From a phage, in sequence record NC_105788.1: a stretch of 49,689 bases of DNA; one strand, written 5' to 3'. Positions within the stretch are counted from its first letter, which is position 1. The number at the start of each line of letters is the position of its first letter. The position numbers and the translations under genes are program-made. The notes under the pieces were generated by a model. That model was given only the letters and a program-made list of their open reading frames with translations, had not been told where the DNA came from and made no database searches. This document shows positions 2,490 to 40,523 of this stretch, piece after piece.

Positions 2490-2505
2490 CTGGTTAGGGG
2501 GAATA

Positions 2506-2979
2506 ATGAACCATACTTACAAAATCACAACGAAGTCACCGAAGATTAACGGAAGCACGGTTGCGGCACTAAATAACGCGGCGGCAATTCACGAGAAAAA
2601 CATCATGGAGCGCGTTAAGGCGGCGGTAGGCCGATTCTACGGAATCAACGCAGACATTGCCGACAGCAAACGACTGTTCAAGTATGTGCCAGGCCATCCA
2701 TATAGCCGGATGATTGATATTAAGCACGACAAAGAGCTTGTTAGAATCGGATCGCTTGGCGTTGACGAGTTCGACCACAGCATTAACCTAGTTACGGCAT
2801 ATCAAACGTTGTTAGAATCGGATCGCTTGGCGTTGACGAAAAGCATGATTTGGATTCACACCTTCTACACCGGAAAATTTAACAGCGTTATTCATAAGAG
2901 AGTTTACGAAAGCTACTCTGAAGCTAATAAACAGCATGAAGTTTTAGGTGGAACGCTTAAAGCATATATTCCGGCATAA
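2506..2979 (+). CDS. hypothetical protein (157 aa)
   Basis: ATG 2506 after AGGGGG RBS; contains a 31-bp perfect direct repeat. Confidence 0.5.
   Translation: MNHTYKITTKSPKINGSTVAALNNAAAIHEKNIMERVKAAVGRFYGINADIADSKRLFKYVPGHPYSRMIDIKHDKELVRIGSLGVDEFDHSINLVTAYQTLLESDRLALTKSMIWIHTFYTGKFNSVIHKRVYESYSEANKQHEVLGGTLKAYIPA
2738..2839 (+). repeat. 31-bp perfect direct repeat (TTGTTAGAATCGGATCGCTTGGCGTTGACGA) at about 2738-2768 and 2809-2839
   Basis: read directly; copies 71 bp apart so they are translated in different frames. Confidence 0.7.
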
Positions 2980-2999
2980 ATAGCACGAATTGCTAAAGA
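2980..2999 (+). promoter_or_regulatory. conserved box ATAGCACGAATTGCTAAAGA
   Basis: box copy directly after stop of 2506..2979. Confidence 0.6.
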
Positions 3000-3057
3000 C
3001 ATGCTATCGGGGGTGATATATATTACTCCCACACCAAACGAAACAAAGGAATCAAAA

Positions 3058-3282
3058 ATGAGCATTAAAGTTGAGAATATCATCAAGCACCTGAACGCGA
3101 AAGGTCGTGTAGTTATCAAAATGGATAAGTCTTCCGGTTTTATTTCAATGACGGTAACTAAGTCCCGTAACGGTAATAACGTTATCGGCAGTACGCCAGG
3201 CTCGCGCTTAGTAAATGCAACAGATGCGGATGTGCGCGCTACGCTTGAGTCTAACTCAATTTACATTAATTCATGGAGTTGA
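3058..3282 (+). CDS. hypothetical protein (74 aa)
   Basis: ATG 3058 after AAAGGA RBS (internal start of ORF 3001..3282). Confidence 0.5.
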   Translation: MSIKVENIIKHLNAKGRVVIKMDKSSGFISMTVTKSRNGNNVIGSTPGSRLVNATDADVRATLESNSIYINSWS

Positions 3283-3495
3283 TTGATGGAGCGGGATAAT
3301 TTCTAGACTCGTTATTTTGCCGCTCTTGATGCTGGGCTTAGCGCGGAATGGTGTATCAAGGTTGCGTATAAAGAAATTACGCTTGACGACGCGCTAGGGA
3401 ATATGGATATGGACGCGGAGAGTGAATATAATCCCGGCTTCGAGATGCCTGGTGATGATATTGATGAGGACGACGACGATTATATTCCCTGGTAA

Positions 3496-3515
3496 ATAGC
3501 ACGATTTGTTAATAT
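3496..3515 (+). promoter_or_regulatory. conserved box variant ATAGCACGATTTGTTAATAT
   Basis: box copy after an unannotated acidic open frame. Confidence 0.5.
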
Positions 3516-3575
3516 TGCCGTAAGGTCATTTGATAAAGTGGCCTTATTCAAGATAACCAATCAGGAGCGAACGCA

Positions 3576-3992
3576 ATGAAAACCATTAAACTTAAATGCA
3601 CTTCAGCAGACAAAATCACAGGATTCGAAGTAAACAATCTGTATAAAGGTCGTGAGCGCTATGATGGCACTCGCGAAGTAAAGTTAAAATGCGGTAAGTA
3701 TTTAAAACTTGAAAAGCATGATGAATTACAGATTCACGGATCTGATGAAATCTTCTTCGCGAAGTTCACCGAGTTGAAAACAAAGACGCTCAAGTGCACC
3801 GGACTTGACCATCGCAACCCGATGAAAAAATCATTCAAAGTTGGCAAGCGTTATCAGGTAGAAAGCGGTCGCGCTCTTGGTGGCGTAGCTGGTTACATCT
3901 TTGATGAAGATGGATATCGCTGGACCCTGTTTCGCGAAGAGGTTGGTTTTAGTATCGCAGACGGCACAACCTTTGAGGCCAAATACTTATAA
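3576..3992 (+). CDS. hypothetical protein (138 aa)
   Basis: ATG preceded by AACCAATCAGGAG block. Confidence 0.55.
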   Translation: MKTIKLKCTSADKITGFEVNNLYKGRERYDGTREVKLKCGKYLKLEKHDELQIHGSDEIFFAKFTELKTKTLKCTGLDHRNPMKKSFKVGKRYQVESGRALGGVAGYIFDEDGYRWTLFREEVGFSIADGTTFEAKYL

Positions 3993-3995
3993 CCA

Positions 3996-4015
3996 ATAGC
4001 ACTTTTTGCTAAACG
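3996..4015 (+). promoter_or_regulatory. conserved box ATAGCACTTTTTGCTAAACG
   Basis: box copy after stop of 3576..3992. Confidence 0.6.
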
Positions 4016-4068
4016 CGTGTACCATTGGCGGTGTATCATTCACACCGTCAACAAAGGAGTTTATTGTG

Positions 4069-32961: not shown

Positions 32962-33005
32962 AACTTACCCCCATAAAAAAAGGCGCTACATGAGCGCCTT
33001 GATGA

Positions 33006-33293
33006 TTAATATTCGCCGCCGTCCTCAAGCTCTTTAACGCTTTTGCTATCCCACGGATCTGGCTTCGTGATCTTTGCCATTTCAGCACGGATTTTGCGGT
33101 TGGTTGCACTGTCGTCTTTAACTTCGATTTCTTCGCGAGCAATTAAGCAACGCAGGCCAGGCAAATCAAGAACGGACGCCGGAAGCGTGACCTCTTCATC
33201 TGGAAGAACTTTAGCAAAGGAGCCATCTTCAAGACGGAACATCTGAAGAGCTACACCAACGTTTACGATAACAACAGTTTTTTCTTTAGCCAT
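33006..33293 (-). CDS. hypothetical structural-module protein (95 aa)
   Basis: ORF track; GGAG RBS; directly after terminator following capsid gene. Confidence 0.5.
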   Translation of the reverse strand: MAKEKTVVIVNVGVALQMFRLEDGSFAKVLPDEEVTLPASVLDLPGLRCLIAREEIEVKDDSATNRKIRAEMAKITKPDPWDSKSVKELEDGGEY

Positions 33294-33306
33294 TTTGATT
33301 TCTCCA

Positions 33307-33335
33307 ATAAAAAAGGGACTAACTAAGTTAGCCCC
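33307..33335 (-). terminator. hairpin plus T6 immediately after major capsid gene
   Basis: AGGGGCTAAC-TTA-GTTAGTCCCT + T6 on minus strand. Confidence 0.55.
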
Positions 33336-33342
33336 TATAATA

Positions 33343-34302
33343 TTACACGCCAGTAATTAAGACAATAGTCATCGGGCGATAAATTGTAAGACCAGTACAC
33401 TTAGAGGTGCAAGGCACTTTGAAGTGCAAGTCTTTCGGCTGCGCTGGCAGCATGTTAAATGCTTCCGGGATCTCGATGGACATGTTCATCGGATTCTTTT
33501 CGTACACCAGCACACCTTTAGTGCCTGCGCCGTCGATATCCTCAAGCTCTGCGATAGAGTCGATTTCGATACCGGAGTTCTGAGACTTGAAATAGTCCAG
33601 ATAAGACATAGTAGTCTCAGGCATACGAATCGCCAAAACCTTACGCATGGAAGGCGGAATCAGGATGTTGGTTGCTCGGTGTTGGCCCCGAGTAATCGTC
33701 TCGATGGTTTCGATCGCTTGAGTTAGCTCAGCTTCCGCAGTTTCCGGCTTCATAGTAGATGCATCAATCCACTTACCGGAGGTAATTTTAGTGATGTTCG
33801 GATGGTTAAACACGGACACAATCTTGTGCGGTGCGGAACCTTTGAACACCAGGCGGTTAACAAGCTGATCATGCGCCAACTGGCACGCGCTCGCCTTACG
33901 GGTTGACAGTGGGCGACCAGTTGCCTGACCTGCTTTGATTTCGTCGATTGAGATCAGATACGCATTACCCAAACGGAACACCTTACCAAATTCAGAAGTA
34001 CCAAGCGCATCAACCAGAGGCAGGTCATCGGTATAGTCAGCGATAATCTGAGCAGTACCAACCTTATCAAAAGTCATGTACTCAAACGTCTTGTCGGTCG
34101 GAGAGAGTTCGGTTGTAACCGGGAATACTCGTAGTGCTGAGCCTACCGGATAGTCTTCTTCGTAAGACTGGCTTTTGATGCGGTGTAGTTCCTGAGCGGT
34201 CCAGATACCCATCGTTGCGGCTGCATCCTGTTTTACGCCAGCCTGGATCAGATACATTTCAACATTACTTTTATCTGCTTCATCAAATTTTTTAGTAGTC
34301 AT
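33343..34302 (-). CDS. major capsid protein
   Basis: 319 aa; lambda-like gene order (protease - decoration - capsid); GGAGAAG RBS; flanked by terminator hairpins. Confidence 0.7.
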   Translation of the reverse strand: MTTKKFDEADKSNVEMYLIQAGVKQDAAATMGIWTAQELHRIKSQSYEEDYPVGSALRVFPVTTELSPTDKTFEYMTFDKVGTAQIIADYTDDLPLVDALGTSEFGKVFRLGNAYLISIDEIKAGQATGRPLSTRKASACQLAHDQLVNRLVFKGSAPHKIVSVFNHPNITKITSGKWIDASTMKPETAEAELTQAIETIETITRGQHRATNILIPPSMRKVLAIRMPETTMSYLDYFKSQNSGIEIDSIAELEDIDGAGTKGVLVYEKNPMNMSIEIPEAFNMLPAQPKDLHFKVPCTSKCTGLTIYRPMTIVLITGV

Positions 34303-34323
34303 GATTACTTCTCCGTAGTTAAT

Positions 34324-34350
34324 AAAAAAGCCGTGATTATGTTCACGGCT
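34324..34350 (-). terminator. hairpin plus T6 upstream of major capsid gene
   Basis: AGCCGTGA-ACATAA-TCACGGCT + T6. Confidence 0.5.
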
Positions 34351-34356
34351 TCAATA

Positions 34357-34376
34357 ATAGCACTTTTTGTTAAAGC
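34357..34376. promoter_or_regulatory. conserved box (ATAGCACTTTTTGTTAAAGC, inverted relative to local genes)
   Basis: box copy between decoration-like gene and capsid gene. Confidence 0.5.
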
Positions 34377-34393
34377 GTCAAAGTGTTTTTATG

Positions 34394-35161
34394 TTATGCA
34401 TCAACCTCTGGAGTTGGCACTGCCTCTACGCGATAAGCAATGTTTGCCGTCGTCTTGCTGGCATCGTTAGCCGTCCAGGTAATATTGAAATCACCGACCA
34501 CCTCTCCACCAACAGGAGTTACAAGACCTGAGTCCGGATCGACAGTGGCGATATTGGTAGCGTCGATTGACCATCTACCAGTCTTATCGGTTGCATTAGC
34601 CGGAAGAGCATTAGCTACACACTGGATCGTAACATTGTTTGGTTGAGGACTTTCCTTGTCAGTGGTGATTGTAGCGGACTCAACAAGAACAACAGGTGGC
34701 GGCGGCGGTGGAACGATGAAAGCATTTTGTTTCACCTGAACCTCAATAATGTGCCCGTCTTCGTGCTTAACAAAGCCACCCGCAAAGGTCCAACCAACAT
34801 AATCATCAACTCCAGTTACTGAGCCTCCAGCGCCAAATTTAAGTTTTGAGAATAGTTCCGGAGCGTCACCAATAGAAGTAAGCGCCCACACGCGACCGTG
34901 AGAAACGACGTTGCACACTTCACCGTCAAGGATTTTACCGCTCAGGTGTTCATATTGGGAACGGAAAGCGATACCGTAAGGAGTTCCACCATCAGAAAGC
35001 GCCGTCACAACTTTTACACCGTCAACGATGCCGACAACCTGAACCGCTGAGCCGAACTCAATGTCACCTTGAGCCACACAAGCACCATCAATATTGTAGT
35101 CTGAAGTATCAGAAAGATTTCCCGGGCACGCCGGGCGCAACATTAAATTTTCGTAAGCCAT
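34394..35161 (-). CDS. capsid decoration-like protein with C-terminal Ig-like (Big_2-like) domain
   Basis: N-terminal 150 aa paralogous to 35221..35700 product; poly-Pro linker PPPPPP then Ig-like domain. Confidence 0.5.
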   Translation of the reverse strand: MAYENLMLRPACPGNLSDTSDYNIDGACVAQGDIEFGSAVQVVGIVDGVKVVTALSDGGTPYGIAFRSQYEHLSGKILDGEVCNVVSHGRVWALTSIGDAPELFSKLKFGAGGSVTGVDDYVGWTFAGGFVKHEDGHIIEVQVKQNAFIVPPPPPPVVLVESATITTDKESPQPNNVTIQCVANALPANATDKTGRWSIDATNIATVDPDSGLVTPVGGEVVGDFNITWTANDASKTTANIAYRVEAVPTPEVDA

Positions 35162-35175
35162 AATGATTTCTCCAT

Positions 35176-35205
35176 AAAAAAAGGACTATCCAAAAGGATA
35201 GTCCT
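35176..35205 (-). terminator. hairpin plus T7 between the two decoration-like genes
   Basis: AGGACTATCC-TTTT-GGATAGTCCT + T7. Confidence 0.55.
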
Positions 35206-35220
35206 TATATTAAATGCTAA

Positions 35221-35700
35221 TTACAGTTGATGCAACTGAACTTCTACAAGCTGAATATCTTTATATTTGGCAAAGCCGCCAGCATAAGTCCAGTTAGTAG
35301 TGATTGTTCCGTCAGATTTCTCCTTGCCGTCAACATCCAACTTAACCGCTGTTCCGAAAGTTGGCGCCGCGACAGATTTGGAAAGCATCCAAACTCGACC
35401 GGATGTAATTACGTTGATAGCACCGCCCTCTTCATAAACCATCTGACCTTGAGAGTTAACAGTTTGCCAGTGAGATCGAATTGCCACGCCGTAAGGATAT
35501 TTTTCCGCTTCCATAACCTTAACAAGTTTATGACCGTCAACCGCTTGCGCTGCGACAACCTGCACGGCAGCTCCAACCAAAACATCACCCCCTACACTAA
35601 CGACGCAAGCGCCGTCAACGTTGTATTTAGAGGTATCCGAAATCATGCCCGGGAGGGCGATCGCCATGTCGCGCTGATAAGATGCGTTAATCTGTGCCAT
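35221..35700 (-). CDS. capsid decoration-like protein (paralog 1)
   Basis: shares motifs with 34394..35161 product (DTS.YN.DGACV; GRVW.L; AGGF.K); AAGGAG RBS. Confidence 0.5.
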   Translation of the reverse strand: MAQINASYQRDMAIALPGMISDTSKYNVDGACVVSVGGDVLVGAAVQVVAAQAVDGHKLVKVMEAEKYPYGVAIRSHWQTVNSQGQMVYEEGGAINVITSGRVWMLSKSVAAPTFGTAVKLDVDGKEKSDGTITTNWTYAGGFAKYKDIQLVEVQLHQL

Positions 35701-35711
35701 GATATTTCTCC

Positions 35712-36824
35712 TTACATTACTTTGCTTAAACGTGAATTTGGCGTAACAGGAGCGGCGTCGTTTTTCTCTTCCGGCTTACCGCCTTCGATAGAGTCGCCTT
35801 TTACTGCTTTACGCTGAATAGCCATGATATCAGAATCTTTAGCAACATCAAACATAGCGTCGATATATGCGTCTGATTTTTCACTAACATCTTTATCAAG
35901 CATGGCTTTAACTACGGCAATCTTGACGTCTTTGATATCAAGACCATCATGTTTGACGCCTGCGGTTTCTGCTACTGCGGTAACTTCTGCGCGTGCGGCG
36001 GCATCGGCTTTTTGCTTCTCTACCTCTGCCTTCACAAGTTCCGGCAGAGAGTCAACCTTAACCTTCAGCGCATCGCGCTCAGCTTCGAAGCCATCAGCTT
36101 TCCCCTGAATGGTGGCAATCTGCGCGGTTAATTTTTCGATATGGTTCGCAACGTCTTCGGTTACTTCCACATCAACTGAGTCGATCTTAATTTTTTTCAT
36201 TTGCTTGTCCTCGTTAGTTAATTGAACGTTATTATCATACGGGAACTCCTGTTCGGCATCAAGATTTAATTTAGCAATTCCCGCACGACCTTTAAAAACT
36301 AGGGCAATATGGTTGACCTTGATATTAGTTTGTACCGCGTCGAATTTCACCCAACCTTCAGGCGGCGCTTCGTCCTGTTTCATATCCTCTTCGAAGATAT
36401 ATTCTCCAGTCTCATTTGAACCCCAGCCGGGCTTATCAATATCTACCGACGTATACCCTACAGATAATTCCCCGGCCTCCTTCGCTTTAGCTTTGCTGAT
36501 CGCGTAGTCGCTGTAAATACTCAAAGGAACTTCAACGCCAACCCCTGAAGCAATACCAGCGCCAGCACACGATCCGACAACAACGTCCTTAGCATTTTGG
36601 GGTGTCACCGTTACGTGACCGACTGTTATCGGCTTGCCTGCAAAACTTTGCAAGGAATCTTGCTTGAAAACTTCGGACGCCGGACGGAACTCAACTCGAT
36701 CGCCGTGAGGCGTTTTGTAAACCTGAGCGCCGATTCGCGCCACGATTGGGCGGTCAACTAAAAAACCGTTATCATCAAAGTGAGCCTTGATTTTTACTGA
36801 ATCGAATCTTTGCTTTGCCTTCAT
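35712..36824 (-). CDS. prohead protease / scaffolding protein
   Basis: position between head morphogenesis and decoration/capsid genes; coiled-coil Lys/Glu/Ala-rich C-terminal half; start at internal ATG with AGGAGA RBS. Confidence 0.55.
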   Translation of the reverse strand: MKAKQRFDSVKIKAHFDDNGFLVDRPIVARIGAQVYKTPHGDRVEFRPASEVFKQDSLQSFAGKPITVGHVTVTPQNAKDVVVGSCAGAGIASGVGVEVPLSIYSDYAISKAKAKEAGELSVGYTSVDIDKPGWGSNETGEYIFEEDMKQDEAPPEGWVKFDAVQTNIKVNHIALVFKGRAGIAKLNLDAEQEFPYDNNVQLTNEDKQMKKIKIDSVDVEVTEDVANHIEKLTAQIATIQGKADGFEAERDALKVKVDSLPELVKAEVEKQKADAAARAEVTAVAETAGVKHDGLDIKDVKIAVVKAMLDKDVSEKSDAYIDAMFDVAKDSDIMAIQRKAVKGDSIEGGKPEEKNDAAPVTPNSRLSKVM

Positions 36825-36826
36825 TT

Positions 36827-37588
36827 TTAATCTCCTGTAGAAAAGTCTGGAACAGCCCAACAGCGGCAGTTGTATTCTTCACCCGGGAATACGTGATCGG
36901 AATCTACCGCTATGCGCTTACCTTCCCATCTTACATGTTTTTCACGTTCGCGTAAATCCATCACCCCGCGCCAGAAATAGTAAGATACACCAGCGTCTTT
37001 TATGCGCTGCCGCATCAGTCTACTGTTCCAGGTTCCGACAATTCCCGACGCTCTATTTTTGGCCCAGCTACGGTAAATACCAAATCGCTCCTTAGCAAGT
37101 TCAACAACAAAATCCTTGCTTTTACCCTGACCGGATGCCGCACGAAGTTTATCAGTGAAATCAGTAACCATGTTGGCGGCAAATTTCCTGATAGAAGTAG
37201 TCACCTGCGATCGCCACAGATTATATTGTCCTGAGTACCAGCTTTCGGCAGCGGTAGGACCAATCAGGGCAAGTAGCATCACAGCTTGATTCTTCTTACC
37301 TCCAGAATTGCGAGCGATGCGCAGCCACTGCTTAGAGTTGAATTTATAGATCGCGAGCGCAACGGATGATAGAGAACCAATAATCGGAGCGATGAGTGAT
37401 TCGACGTAATCAAGCAATGACCTTTCTGCCTGATCTATCTCTTCGTCGGTAGCGTCAAATTTCATCGGCTTTAATTCGTCACGCATTTTTTCAGTTAGTT
37501 TGGCTGCAACATCCTGTAGGGAGCGCGACATTGCGCGCTCGCTCATTTCAGGATAGCGCCACTGTGTTGCAACGCCATTAATTTTCAT
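36827..37588 (-). CDS. head morphogenesis protein (Mu gpF / SPP1 gp7-like minor capsid protein)
   Basis: position directly after portal; GGGGGGAAG RBS. Confidence 0.55.
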   Translation of the reverse strand: MKINGVATQWRYPEMSERAMSRSLQDVAAKLTEKMRDELKPMKFDATDEEIDQAERSLLDYVESLIAPIIGSLSSVALAIYKFNSKQWLRIARNSGGKKNQAVMLLALIGPTAAESWYSGQYNLWRSQVTTSIRKFAANMVTDFTDKLRAASGQGKSKDFVVELAKERFGIYRSWAKNRASGIVGTWNSRLMRQRIKDAGVSYYFWRGVMDLREREKHVRWEGKRIAVDSDHVFPGEEYNCRCWAVPDFSTGD

Positions 37589-38861
37589 TTTCTAACTTCC
37601 CCCCTAATCCCGGCTCCGGCTCGGTTGTTTCTTCAGGTTCGCGAATGTTGATGTTATTTCCATCCTTGAGTTTAAACTCAGGGGCAATAGATCGCAACGT
37701 GTCGCGAGCTTCTTCCAGATCGATGATTTGCTCAGTGATAGCCTTTGTGACTGACTCAACGTTATTCTTCGTGATCTCTGATTCCTCTTTCTTACTCGGA
37801 ACAGACAAAGGCTCAAACTCGATCGACCACTCTTCCTCATCAACAATGAACGGCAACAAGAACTCAAGAAGCGGCCTGTAATCTTCCTCGCGTTTGCGAT
37901 CGACTAGCTTATAGAAAGTCTCAAGTGCTGTGTTTTGGCTCGCTGATACGCCGCCTACGTTCTTGTTCTTAATGATAATCTCATGAATCCCGGATAGGGA
38001 GACGATGCGATCCATCTTGCTTGACAAGAACTCAGGAACTCCGCTGATATCAGAGTTGAGAACGTCATATTCCTCAGTCTCAGCATCAATACCGATCGCA
38101 CGGCCTACGCCGGAGTTATCATCAACCTGAGCAAGTCGCAGTCGCGCGGCATACTGAGCGTCATCATCATCACACATTTCAGCAAGACCTTTGACCTTCC
38201 ATACAGCCTGTTGCTTACGTCGCAAGATCTGAGTAGCCAGAGATTCACAGTAATCATAGTCACAGATTGCATCAATCAGTGACTTGTTCAATACCGAAGC
38301 TCCCCATCCTTGATTCTGCTTTCTTGCCTGTTGCGTTACTCGTTCACCATCAGCAATAAAGACTCTTGAGTGATGAATCAGATACGGCTGCATATTGTCG
38401 CCAGGGGATACCTTGTAAATTTCAGGCTCACCATAGCGAGGGGATCTTGCATTGGTGACTCGCTTTTCAACAGTGATAGCAAATCGATCGTAAACTCGGA
38501 CGCCTTCAAGTTTAGCTCCAGGCTTTGCCTGACTGGTTAACATCCGGTTGTCTTTGATGATTGCAACCATCGCCGCGCCACCGTAAAGTCGCGCCCAACA
38601 AAGAAGATCCACCAGACTTGAATCAAGTTTGTAGCTATCCCATAAAGACTTGAACTCTTTTTCATCCTTAACGCCTGACATTTTAAAACCAGCCGTCACC
38701 ATCTCTTCCGGGATAACATCCACAATTCGCTTCGCGGTTGCGTTGTCGTTGTAGAAAGAACCGACGTGATATGATGCATCAGACATAAAGAATGGCTTAG
38801 GCGATCCATCTGCACCGCCGTTAAAAATATCGTTATATCCATCATGTTTAACAATTTTCAT
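37578..38861 (-). CDS. portal protein
   Basis: position directly after TerL; about 427 aa; acidic C-terminus; start at internal ATG with GGAGGAAAC RBS. Confidence 0.65.
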   Translation of the reverse strand: MKIVKHDGYNDIFNGGADGSPKPFFMSDASYHVGSFYNDNATAKRIVDVIPEEMVTAGFKMSGVKDEKEFKSLWDSYKLDSSLVDLLCWARLYGGAAMVAIIKDNRMLTSQAKPGAKLEGVRVYDRFAITVEKRVTNARSPRYGEPEIYKVSPGDNMQPYLIHHSRVFIADGERVTQQARKQNQGWGASVLNKSLIDAICDYDYCESLATQILRRKQQAVWKVKGLAEMCDDDDAQYAARLRLAQVDDNSGVGRAIGIDAETEEYDVLNSDISGVPEFLSSKMDRIVSLSGIHEIIIKNKNVGGVSASQNTALETFYKLVDRKREEDYRPLLEFLLPFIVDEEEWSIEFEPLSVPSKKEESEITKNNVESVTKAITEQIIDLEEARDTLRSIAPEFKLKDGNNINIREPEETTEPEPGLGGKLENEN

Positions 38862-38872
38862 GTTTCCTCCAA

Positions 38873-38899
38873 TAAAAAGGGCCGTCAATTGACAGCCCT
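38873..38899 (-). terminator. hairpin plus T5 between TerL and portal genes
   Basis: near-palindrome GGGC(T/C)GTCAATTGAC(G/A)GCCC + T5. Confidence 0.4.
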
Positions 38900-38915
38900 G
38901 ATTATATCTCATTTA

Positions 38916-40484
38916 TTACCGCTTAACCATCCCGGCGAGTCGCTTCATTCGCTCGATAGGATCGTCAATTGTCAGTAATTCGATATTCGCCGCATCCATG
39001 AAGTTATCGACGATATCATCATGCGGGTGAGTGTCATCGTAAGTGAATGCGCTGTGTTCCGCGATAATTTCCGCAAGCATGGGGTGCTCTTCTGGCAGAA
39101 CCACGCGCCCGGCTTTAATAACTGGCTGGGCGTCCATAGCTCGGGTAACTTTGTCTTTGTTACGCTGCAATGGAGTGATGGATATCGGAGTCTTTTTCCT
39201 TAGATTCTGGATTAAGCCCGTACCGCTCGCCTTATCTTCCACATAGATTTTACGAAGCACCCCCATTGATTTATTGTGCCTCCATGCCTGGTTGACGAAA
39301 GCGGTAAATTGCTTCTCCATATCCGGCGCTTCCCACTTTCCGCGAATGCCGTCGATAAAGTAAACCTTATCATTCTTCTTGCCCCACAAACAAAATACCG
39401 TGTAGTCGTTTAGCTCGCCTGTCTTCTGAGCGGTATCGGCAGTGATGAATCGGTAATCATATTTACCCGGATCTGGCTCGTCAGCGTCAAGGCTACTGCC
39501 GTAATAAGTCCACCACTCTGAGTTAAACACGGAGCCACCCAGCGCGATCGGCTTCTGCTGATACTGAGAATCAAAGGTATACTGATCTGCTTCTCGTAAA
39601 GCTAGCAGGTCGTGCACACTTTCCTTGCTGGGCCAAAAAGAGTAATGCTTAACGCCATCCAATTCTACATACTCAGACGATAAAACATCACGAGCAAAGT
39701 AAGGCTGTAACCAATCAGGAAGTGTCTTTCCGTATTCTTCCGTCACCAGCGCCGGGATTGAGATTTGGTCAAACTCAATACCCATCCCGCCATTCATCAT
39801 GAACCAGGTTGAATCCTGAGCATGTAGTCGTTGCTGAATTGCAATAATAGGCGTCTCGTTATGCATACGACGGGATCGAATGGTGTTTTTCAATAGCATG
39901 TGCGTACGCTCACGCTTAACCTTTGAGAACATATCATCAGGCTTGTCGATATCGTCTAGCATTACCATCCCCGAGAATCCCGGCGTCATGTAGCCACCAC
40001 GCGAACCAGTAATACGACCGCCAGCCGCTGCGGATATCAACTCAAACCAAACCTTTCCATCTTCGTTAAGAACCTGCATCTCCTCATCTTTCGATGTACC
40101 GAACTTGCAAGGCCATAGCTCTTGAAATTCGTTGCTGCTGATAATCTCACGGACGCGCTTACTGTTACGCTTAACCAGGCTGTCAGCAAACGACACGTTA
40201 AGGTTTCGCACCTTCTTACACTTAAGCATTGCGTATACCGGAAGGTGAATTGAGAACACTTCAGTTTTACCGGAACCCGGCGTGACGTTAAAGATAGTGT
40301 TGCCGCGTCGGCCTGCAATTATTTCCTCCACTTCGTGACATAGGTAAAGGTGATGCCAGTTAGGCTGGAACTGCTGCGCCTGCATAAGCTGGAACCAGAT
40401 CCGAATCATTTTTTCGAAATTGGCCTCGCTCATTTTCTTGATCGCTAACTTCTGCGTTGCGTTAAGGTCTTCCCATTGAATCAT
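38916..40484 (-). CDS. terminase large subunit
   Basis: Walker A-like TPGSGKTE and Walker B-like VMLDDIDK followed by nuclease-like C-terminal half; start at internal ATG with GGGAGA RBS. Confidence 0.85.
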   Translation of the reverse strand: MIQWEDLNATQKLAIKKMSEANFEKMIRIWFQLMQAQQFQPNWHHLYLCHEVEEIIAGRRGNTIFNVTPGSGKTEVFSIHLPVYAMLKCKKVRNLNVSFADSLVKRNSKRVREIISSNEFQELWPCKFGTSKDEEMQVLNEDGKVWFELISAAAGGRITGSRGGYMTPGFSGMVMLDDIDKPDDMFSKVKRERTHMLLKNTIRSRRMHNETPIIAIQQRLHAQDSTWFMMNGGMGIEFDQISIPALVTEEYGKTLPDWLQPYFARDVLSSEYVELDGVKHYSFWPSKESVHDLLALREADQYTFDSQYQQKPIALGGSVFNSEWWTYYGSSLDADEPDPGKYDYRFITADTAQKTGELNDYTVFCLWGKKNDKVYFIDGIRGKWEAPDMEKQFTAFVNQAWRHNKSMGVLRKIYVEDKASGTGLIQNLRKKTPISITPLQRNKDKVTRAMDAQPVIKAGRVVLPEEHPMLAEIIAEHSAFTYDDTHPHDDIVDNFMDAANIELLTIDDPIERMKRLAGMVKR

Positions 40485-40523
40485 GATTAAGTCTCCCATG
40501 TGGGCGCTCGCGCGCCCGTAACG

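Follow-up and report, generated by a model that had tools for sequence, protein, structure and literature searches.

A tandem pair of capsid cement genes in the T1-type Escherichia phage CLB_P3, one with an Ig-like domain

Two adjacent genes just upstream of a major capsid gene, encoding related proteins of which one is extended by a second domain, raise the question of what such a pair does in the virion and what the extra domain is good for. The genes lie in a window of 49,689 nucleotides (the whole stretch of DNA that was analysed), and the phage is Escherichia phage CLB_P3 (OL770108.1; Drexlerviridae, Tunavirinae, Tunavirus), with 100% identity over 3.6 kb (33300-36900); phage T1 matches the same part of the window at ~93%. 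According to its record, the source of CLB_P3 was sewage and its isolation host E. coli 55989. An initial annotation had taken the pair for decoration-like proteins with homologous N-terminal domains, encoded directly before the capsid gene, and the gene map agrees with the position: 34394-35700 spans exactly two ORFs, both on the minus strand like all genes of the head module, in the order portal, Mu F-like protein, DUF2213 protease, cement 1, cement 2, major capsid protein.

38916-40499, minus strand: large terminase, by operon position
37578-38912, minus strand: portal, 'portal (connector) protein' in OL770108.1
36827-37588, minus strand: Mu F-like morphogenesis protein (PF04233)
35712-36824, minus strand: prohead maturation protease/scaffold (DUF2213; PF09979, E=9e-26; phrog_530, E=9e-110), with the ATG start annotated in OL770108.1
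35221-35700, minus strand: predicted cement/decoration protein 1, 159 aa (PF22758, phrog_1989, PDB matches)
34394-35161, minus strand: predicted cement/decoration protein 2 with Ig-like domain, 255 aa (PF22758 and PF02368, PDB matches)
33343-34302, minus strand: major capsid protein, ortholog of T1 gp47 (PF09950, E=4e-63; phrog_264, E=7e-105; 99.7% identity to T1)

Both cement proteins bind to the major capsid protein. On the opposite (plus) strand there are ORFs at 35227-35817 (196 aa), 34440-34646 and 34643-34822, for which no credible family was found; they were dismissed as shadows of the minus-strand genes.

Two paralogous cement proteins of the T1 type

The two proteins are paralogs with 40% identity over 149 residues (BLASTP, E=5e-30), which bears out the proposed homology of their N-terminal parts. 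Both score above the gathering score (27 bits) of the Pfam family PF22758, Phage_cement, described as 'Structural cement protein (E217 gp24/Pam3 gp6)': the 159-aa protein reaches 99.5 bits (E=2.5e-28, profile positions 1-145 of 146) and the 255-aa protein 65.4 bits (E=7.9e-18). As expected for this family, the head module has their genes beside that of the major capsid protein. Also phrog_1989 includes both of them (E=1e-60 for the 159-aa protein). Their closest characterised relatives are found in T1, where gp49 (CPTT1_029, 158 aa) is 83.5% identical to the 159-aa protein and gp48 (CPTT1_030, 255 aa) 92.9% identical to the 255-aa protein. In phmmer searches of the PDB, the short protein matches 9kmg_a and 9kzj, 'Decoration protein | cement protein II' (E=9e-85), and the long protein matches 9kzj_H (E=2e-159) and 9kmh_ak (E=2e-154), these entries being the 'Cryo-EM structure of bacteriophage T1 capsid' (9kzj), the 'Bacteriophage FCWL1 capsid' (9kmg) and the 'portal vertex of FCWL1' (9kmh). 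Near-identical proteins are thus part of the capsid models of two phages, and those of T1 are described as trimeric cement (PMC11945409), in line with the decoration-like nature that had been proposed.

As judged from these matches, 35221-35700 and 34394-35161 encode the capsid cement (or decoration) proteins of a siphophage of the T1 type, and no observation speaks against this structural role; their role in CLB_P3 is taken over from orthologs at the identities given, and the particles that have been seen are those of T1 and FCWL1. The pair as such is already known, as T1 has its counterpart in gp49/gp48, for which atomic models were published in 2025, and the current T1 GenBank record names the two 'capsid decoration protein' and 'IgG-domain-containing decoration protein'. 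The T1 proteins (9kzj) and the decoration proteins of FCWL1 (9kmg, 9kmh) are direct orthologs with the same gene order and lengths (158/159 and 255 aa). The T1 pair shares with the CLB_P3 pair the Phage_cement N-domain, the poly-Pro linker, the Big_2 domain and the intergenic terminators, and the differences between them are only allelic, mainly in cement 1.

What the pair would do in CLB_P3 can be described from the T1 head, which has T=7 geometry with 415 gp47 capsid subunits; its threefold and quasi-threefold axes are occupied by 80 homotrimers of gp49 and 60 heterotrimers made of one gp48 and two gp49 (PMC11945409). Built in the same way, a CLB_P3 virion would contain ~360 copies of the short protein, in 80 homotrimers and as two of the three subunits in 60 heterotrimers, and 60 copies of the long paralog as the third subunit in 60 of the 140 trimers, next to 415 capsid proteins. 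In T1, gp49 has an extended N-terminus, which gets as far as the inner capsid surface and touches the A-domains of two capsid subunits, and gp48 stays on the outside only (PMC11945409). All cement-2 proteins aligned have an N-terminus that is four residues shorter than that of cement 1, and this fits the reported difference between the arms of gp49 and gp48; in CLB_P3, too, the short protein may thread its longer arm to the inner surface, with the paralog sitting outside only. In the trimers closest to a vertex, the subunit that faces the penton or portal is probably the paralog, because 60 copies correspond to five per vertex and the portal-vertex structure of FCWL1 (9kmh) contains five chains of the long protein.

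In some relatives (Hafnia phage Pocis76, JLBYU10, vojen, herni), the genes are annotated as 'scaffolding protein' or 'putative zonula occludens toxin', and these annotations are all that speaks for reading the second gene as a scaffolding protein or the first as a toxin-like protein. In Pfam (E<=0.1), neither protein has a match to a scaffold or Zot family, the scaffold function resides in the adjoining gene of the DUF2213 protease, whose C-terminal half is a coiled coil, and both proteins sit on the outside of mature capsids in the cryo-EM models of T1 and FCWL1. The annotations of the relatives are ruled out by these structures, and a scaffold or toxin role at this locus is extremely improbable.

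The assignment as cement proteins also agrees with the fold. The 255-aa protein was modelled with AlphaFold2 from an alignment of 24 homologs (mean pLDDT 88.5), and when the model is compared with the PDB by Foldseek, the capsid chains of T1 and FCWL1 rank first, with TM scores (normalised to the target) of 0.86-0.91 between its N-domain and 9kzj_H and 9kmh_ak (0.91 for 9kmh_ak); the Pam3 cement protein 8hdt_G is matched as well (E=7.5e-4). A beta-tulip fold is thus found for the modelled long protein, and for the short one in its solved ortholog chain 9kmg_a. The N-domains of T1 gp48 and gp49 have been described as beta-tulips like those of TW1 gp56, lambda gpD and the herpesvirus triplex (PMC11945409). 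E217 gp24 and Pam3 gp6 are of the same sequence family (PF22758) and are likewise trimeric beta-tulip cement with an N-terminal arm, located at threefold and quasi-threefold axes (PMC10329688; Foldseek 8hdt_G). E217, a myophage, differs in having a T=9 capsid, a single cement gene, 180 homotrimers only and no Ig domain (PMC10329688), whereas the T1-type phages combine a T=7 capsid with two paralogs, heterotrimers and an Ig domain on one of the paralogs.

The initial annotation had also compared the position of the pair with that of lambda gpD, and this comparison holds in part. Like in the case of gpD (also TW1 gp56 and P74-26 gp87), the genes lie between the protease/scaffold gene and the major capsid gene, and gpD, too, is a trimeric, capsid-stabilising beta-tulip decoration at threefold sites (PMC11945409). 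The gene order protease, decoration, capsid and the fold therefore agree, but the sequence family does not: neither protein has a gpD-family match in Pfam at E<=0.1, and no gpD chain appeared in the phmmer searches of the PDB (E<=1) or among the 50 Foldseek matches listed. As the sequence family is Phage_cement, the relation to gpD is one of position and fold only. By analogy, the cement pair would work like lambda gpD, but it is not a member of the gpD family, which has a single gene, homotrimers only and no Ig domain; the arm of T1 gp49 that reaches the inner capsid surface is a further difference from gpD (PMC11945409).

[quoted passage not shown]

The 255-aa protein can be divided into three parts, in agreement with the poly-Pro linker and the Big_2-like domain that had already been read from the second gene:

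34733..35140, minus strand: N-terminal cement (beta-tulip) domain, residues 8-143 (Pfam range, Foldseek)
34694..34711, minus strand: PPPPPP linker of six prolines, residues 151-156 (translation)
34424..34678, minus strand: Ig-like (Big_2) C-terminal domain, residues ~162-246, seven beta strands (Pfam, AlphaFold2, Foldseek)

An HMM search finds Big_2 (PF02368) at residues 176-238 with 32.5 bits against a gathering score of 22.8 (E=8.1e-8, profile positions 17-76 of 79), and AlphaFold2 and Foldseek agree on an Ig-like beta-sandwich; PF02368 is also present in most of the homologs listed with precomputed Pfam domains. The model consists of two all-beta domains with pLDDT 86-95 and 92-96, the latter being the Ig-like domain, and the linker is its stretch of lowest confidence, with pLDDT 71-72 for residues 141-160 and below 50 for residues 149-151. 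In the homolog alignment, the Pro-rich stretch is conserved in the Tunavirus clade only. By Foldseek, the Ig-like domain matches the Big_2-CBM56 structures 7quz/7r3t with 28-29% identity and an rmsd of 2.6-3.0 over ~95 columns, and also the tail tube proteins T5 pb6 and that of DT57C, a Rib domain and JAM. A phmmer match in a tail tube protein likewise falls in its Ig-like part (8hqz_p, residues 375-454). In T1, the tail tube protein has an Ig-like domain, but a copying of the domain from the phage's own tail tube protein is rejected, as there is no significant similarity between the two (E=0.16). Programmed frameshifts are common in phage structural genes; such an origin of the Ig domain is unneeded here, as the domain is encoded in frame in a single ORF.

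In the T1 capsid, residues 154-255 of gp48 appear as a weak protrusion in the density that was built with AlphaFold3, and the authors suggested that this protrusion may assist adsorption (PMC11945409). The chains of the long protein in the PDB comprise only 150-152 modelled residues in T1 and FCWL1, and the Ig domain therefore lies outside the experimentally resolved part in both phages. On this basis, the Big_2 domain may be pictured as a mobile surface knob on a flexible Pro-rich linker, and it would probably bind carbohydrates of the host or the surroundings weakly and reversibly, which would speed up adsorption. T5 and crAss001 have been cited by the T1 authors for a capsid display of Ig-like domains (PMC11945409). 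T4 Hoc and T5 pb10 also have flexible Ig-like domains on the capsid surface, for which weak adhesion to host or mucus has been proposed, but these are monomers at hexamer centres that are held by unrelated anchoring domains and are not cement; in the T1-type phages, the carrier of the Ig domain is a cement-family subunit inside a heterotrimer.

With the structural role unchanged, the Ig-like domain could also be aimed at something other than the bacterial host. This is suggested by analogy, as mucus binding has been reported for Ig-like domains that decorate the capsids of other coliphages (e.g. PMC11853027 and PMC9271167), and it is compatible with the sewage origin of CLB_P3, the isolation on E. 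coli 55989 and the 60 flexible copies in which the domain is displayed in T1 (PMC11945409). Host adsorption is, however, what the authors of the T1 structure favoured (PMC11945409), the paralogs of vojen and LL5 that are devoid of an Ig domain indicate that the domain is dispensable for the lineage, and in the literature no experiment was found on any Drexlerviridae decoration protein, including adsorption, glycan-binding or deletion tests of the Ig domain in T1-like phages. A paper on gut-phage adhesins does not cover T1-like phages, and a preprint on Avs and pattern recognition mentions the Drexlerviridae capsid protein, not the decoration proteins. A non-host target has some chance of being right, but on balance it is not expected.

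Whether the domain binds anything has to be considered together with its distribution, as the gene pair occurs in several forms:

Tunavirus, Warwickvirus, K50-like Klebsiella phages: cement gene plus cement-Ig gene
Some Warwickvirus-type proteins (337 aa): cement-Ig form with two Ig domains
Hanrivervirus vojen, Tlsvirus LL5: two paralogs, the second of 144-146 aa and lacking the Ig domain (E=1e-14 to 6e-18)
Rtp (Braunvirinae), Webervirus GH-K3: single cement gene

The range from zero to two Ig domains, the tandem paralogs of vojen and LL5 that have none, and the fact that Rtp and Webervirus get by with one cement gene would all agree with a domain that has no binding role and is a neutral or mildly useful passenger (e.g. 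for solubility or against aggregation), the paralog itself then being of geometric importance as a dedicated subunit of penton-adjacent trimers. On the other hand, W229, N232, D233 and the P187/A190/G195 motif of the Ig domain are kept even in distant homologs and thus speak for selection on fold and surface, and the domain has been gained and doubled in several genera, which suggests a benefit. It is thus unlikely that the domain is just a passenger, and adhesion by the Ig knob remains the preferred explanation.

Intergenic elements and the ratio of the head proteins

Two intergenic regions flank the second cement gene, and both contain elements that may regulate transcription:

35174..35206, minus strand: intrinsic-terminator-like hairpin with T-run between the paralogs (IG1; terminator scan, folding, conservation)
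34327..34381, minus strand: promoter-like box and hairpin 5' of the capsid gene (IG2; consensus scan, conservation)

The terminator-like hairpin that had been noticed between the two genes is well defined, as it reads AAGGACTATCC-TTTT-GGATAGTCCTT followed by TTTTT (minus strand, 35206..35181), has an 11-bp stem and a 4-nt loop, and gives a centroid fold energy of -17.6 kcal/mol with a z-score of -3.0. Its T-run stops just 5' of the second gene's ribosome-binding site (GGAG). In all eight two-paralog phages compared, from five genera plus one unclassified Klebsiella phage, a hairpin with T-run is found at this position, and the stem sequences are unrelated (AAGGACTATCC, GGGACCATCC, AAAGGCTCC, GGCGCTC and AAGGCCGG). 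The records of T1 and vB_Eco_Sip annotate a terminator there. In IG2, a sigma-70-like box is found at 34381..34354 (TTGACG, 16 nt, TATTAT, with the TG of an extended -10; 10 of 12 positions match), and this box is nearly invariant in eight phages of five genera, while the flanking proteins are only 30-77% identical. It is directly followed by a hairpin with T-run (34352..34327), the pairing of which is kept across the phages with changed sequences, and the T1 record annotates a promoter and a terminator in this region. A search of 34200-35800 against Rfam gave no match at E<=1, and both hairpins are therefore regarded as plain terminator-type stems and not as a known RNA family.

The arrangement suggests that a partial terminator in IG1 would reduce transcription of the second gene so that it comes closer to the 6:1 ratio of the two proteins, and that the conserved promoter in IG2 would bring expression of the capsid gene back to a high level. 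This transcript-level account of the stoichiometry draws on consensus scans and conservation. The ribosome-binding sites of cement 1, cement 2 and the capsid gene, as read from the sequence, look alike, all being of the GGAG type, and selection during assembly could set the ratio as well without any control of expression. The explanation of the two genes as a cement pair is considered very likely; the vertex-proximal paralog, the Ig-like adhesion knob and the expression control by terminator and promoter are its inferred parts.

Divergence and exchange of the cement pair

In a collection of phage genomes, the cement gene was found by tblastn in 840 records, with hosts that are nearly all enterobacterial, and the number of places exceeds that of the records by ~240, which points to second copies. 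How often the second copy arose can be judged to some extent from the cement domains. In a neighbour-joining tree of 18 of these domains, the cement-2 copies all come together in only 85 of 200 bootstraps, and a single duplication event is favoured because of the four-residue N-terminal deletion that all cement-2 proteins have in common.

A comparison of CLB_P3 with T1 gives 99.7% identity for the protease and capsid proteins. At the nucleotide level, identity is 77-80% over the whole cement-1 gene and 97-100% in its flanks, and in cement 2 there is a patch of 81% identity at residues ~71-120; no other gene of the head module differs as much between these two phages as cement 1. The Warwickvirus phages Sip and JLBYU10 have identical proteases (100%) and nearly identical morphogenesis (98.8%) and capsid proteins (97.9%), and only 55.5% and 34.6% identity in the cement proteins. 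The cement pair of Sip is Tunavirus-like, with 81% and 87% identity to that of CLB_P3. Near-identical neighbours around a divergent cement pair in Sip and JLBYU10 indicate that the pair seems to move as a cassette, and from the sequences the pair appears to be the divergent part of the head module that is swapped as a unit. It would go further to assume that the pair diverges fast, can be exchanged horizontally as a cassette and is not tied to the capsid protein it binds, and that in addition the conserved layout of terminator, promoter and 5' hairpin around the second paralog sets the ratio of ~360:60:415 at the transcript level. This combined proposal is tentative, being a realistic option for which the balance is not quite in favour, and what is new here, the exchange of the cassette and the layout of promoter and terminator, is modest and a matter of detail.

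In practical terms, the CLB_P3 record, where the pair is labelled 'hypothetical protein', can be re-annotated, and the labels 'scaffolding protein' or 'zonula occludens toxin' of many relatives can be corrected as well. The 255-aa protein is also a natural display scaffold, with 60 copies, a tolerated C-terminal fusion and zero to two Ig domains in nature. If the combined proposal is right, the identity of the capsid surface in Drexlerviridae would be swappable and under diversifying selection by host surface, environment or immunity, and such a swappable surface would matter for phage engineering and display.

Promoter-like box and hairpins around the capsid gene

Between the gene of the 255-aa cement-2 protein and the major capsid gene, the spacer holds a promoter-like box together with a hairpin, and further terminator-like sites lie downstream in the head operon.

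34327-34381, minus strand, promoter-like box and hairpin with T-run
33314-33336, minus strand, terminator-like hairpin and T-run after the capsid gene
33006-33293, small DUF7444 gene
32980-33000, minus strand, terminator-like hairpin and T-run after the DUF7444 gene

The box, TTGACG-16 nt-TG-TATTAT, is sigma-70-like and nearly invariant among the eight two-paralog phages compared (five genera), and it is directly followed by the hairpin and T-run, the stem pairing of which is kept in the same eight phages while the sequence changes. A transcript begun about 7 nt past the -10 box would have its first nucleotide within the hairpin's 5' arm, and therefore one stem could serve two roles, depending on the transcript. 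It could terminate transcripts arriving from upstream. In a capsid mRNA begun at the promoter, either part of the stem could be missing or the stem could stabilise the 5' end. Terminator-like stems follow the capsid and DUF7444 genes too, so that such stems bracket nearly every gene in this section of the head operon. They sit just ahead of the ribosome-binding site of the next gene.

Annotation of relatives and the protease start

Many relatives are poorly or wrongly annotated in GenBank. The CLB_P3 record itself lists the genes of cement-1 (the 159-aa paralog), cement-2 and the capsid protein all as "hypothetical protein", and in several records cement-1 is a "putative zonula occludens toxin" and cement-2 a "scaffolding protein". 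A homolog of 255 aa with 94% identity appears under Ralstonia pseudosolanacearum; we suspect that this entry reflects contamination or that its contig was mis-assigned. In the protease gene (35712-36860, minus strand), the longest ORF begins with a TTG at 36860 and shares 34 nt with the gene upstream. The start in the deposited record, an ATG at 36824, gives 370 aa, the same length as the T1 protein.

Variation and proposed exchange of the cement genes

Drexlerviridae differ in the number and architecture of their cement genes.

vojen (Hanrivervirus), 3060-3494, second paralog without Ig domain
LL5 (Tlsvirus), 3024-3464, second paralog without Ig domain
Rtp (Braunvirinae), 2489-2968, one cement gene
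GH-K3 (Webervirus), 2501-3004, one cement gene

All cement-2 proteins aligned share an N-terminus that is four residues shorter.

The head modules of CLB_P3 and T1 are otherwise near-identical, but the cement-1 gene is the divergent spot. Nucleotide identity to T1 is 77-80% over this entire gene (35221-35700) and 81% in a cement-2 patch (34801-34950, residues ~71-120), as compared to 97-100% in the flanking protease gene; at the protein level, it is 83.5% for cement-1, 92.9% for cement-2, and 99.7% for protease and capsid.

Within Warwickvirus, vB_Eco_Sip (2501-4053) was compared with JLBYU10 (2501-3843). Their protease, morphogenesis and capsid proteins are 98-100% identical, but their cement proteins just 55.5% and 34.6%, and the Sip pair is of the Tunavirus type (81% and 87% identity to CLB_P3, two Ig domains). 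This mismatch amid near-identical neighbours, together with the type of the Sip pair, implies that the decoration pair was exchanged between genera as a cassette.
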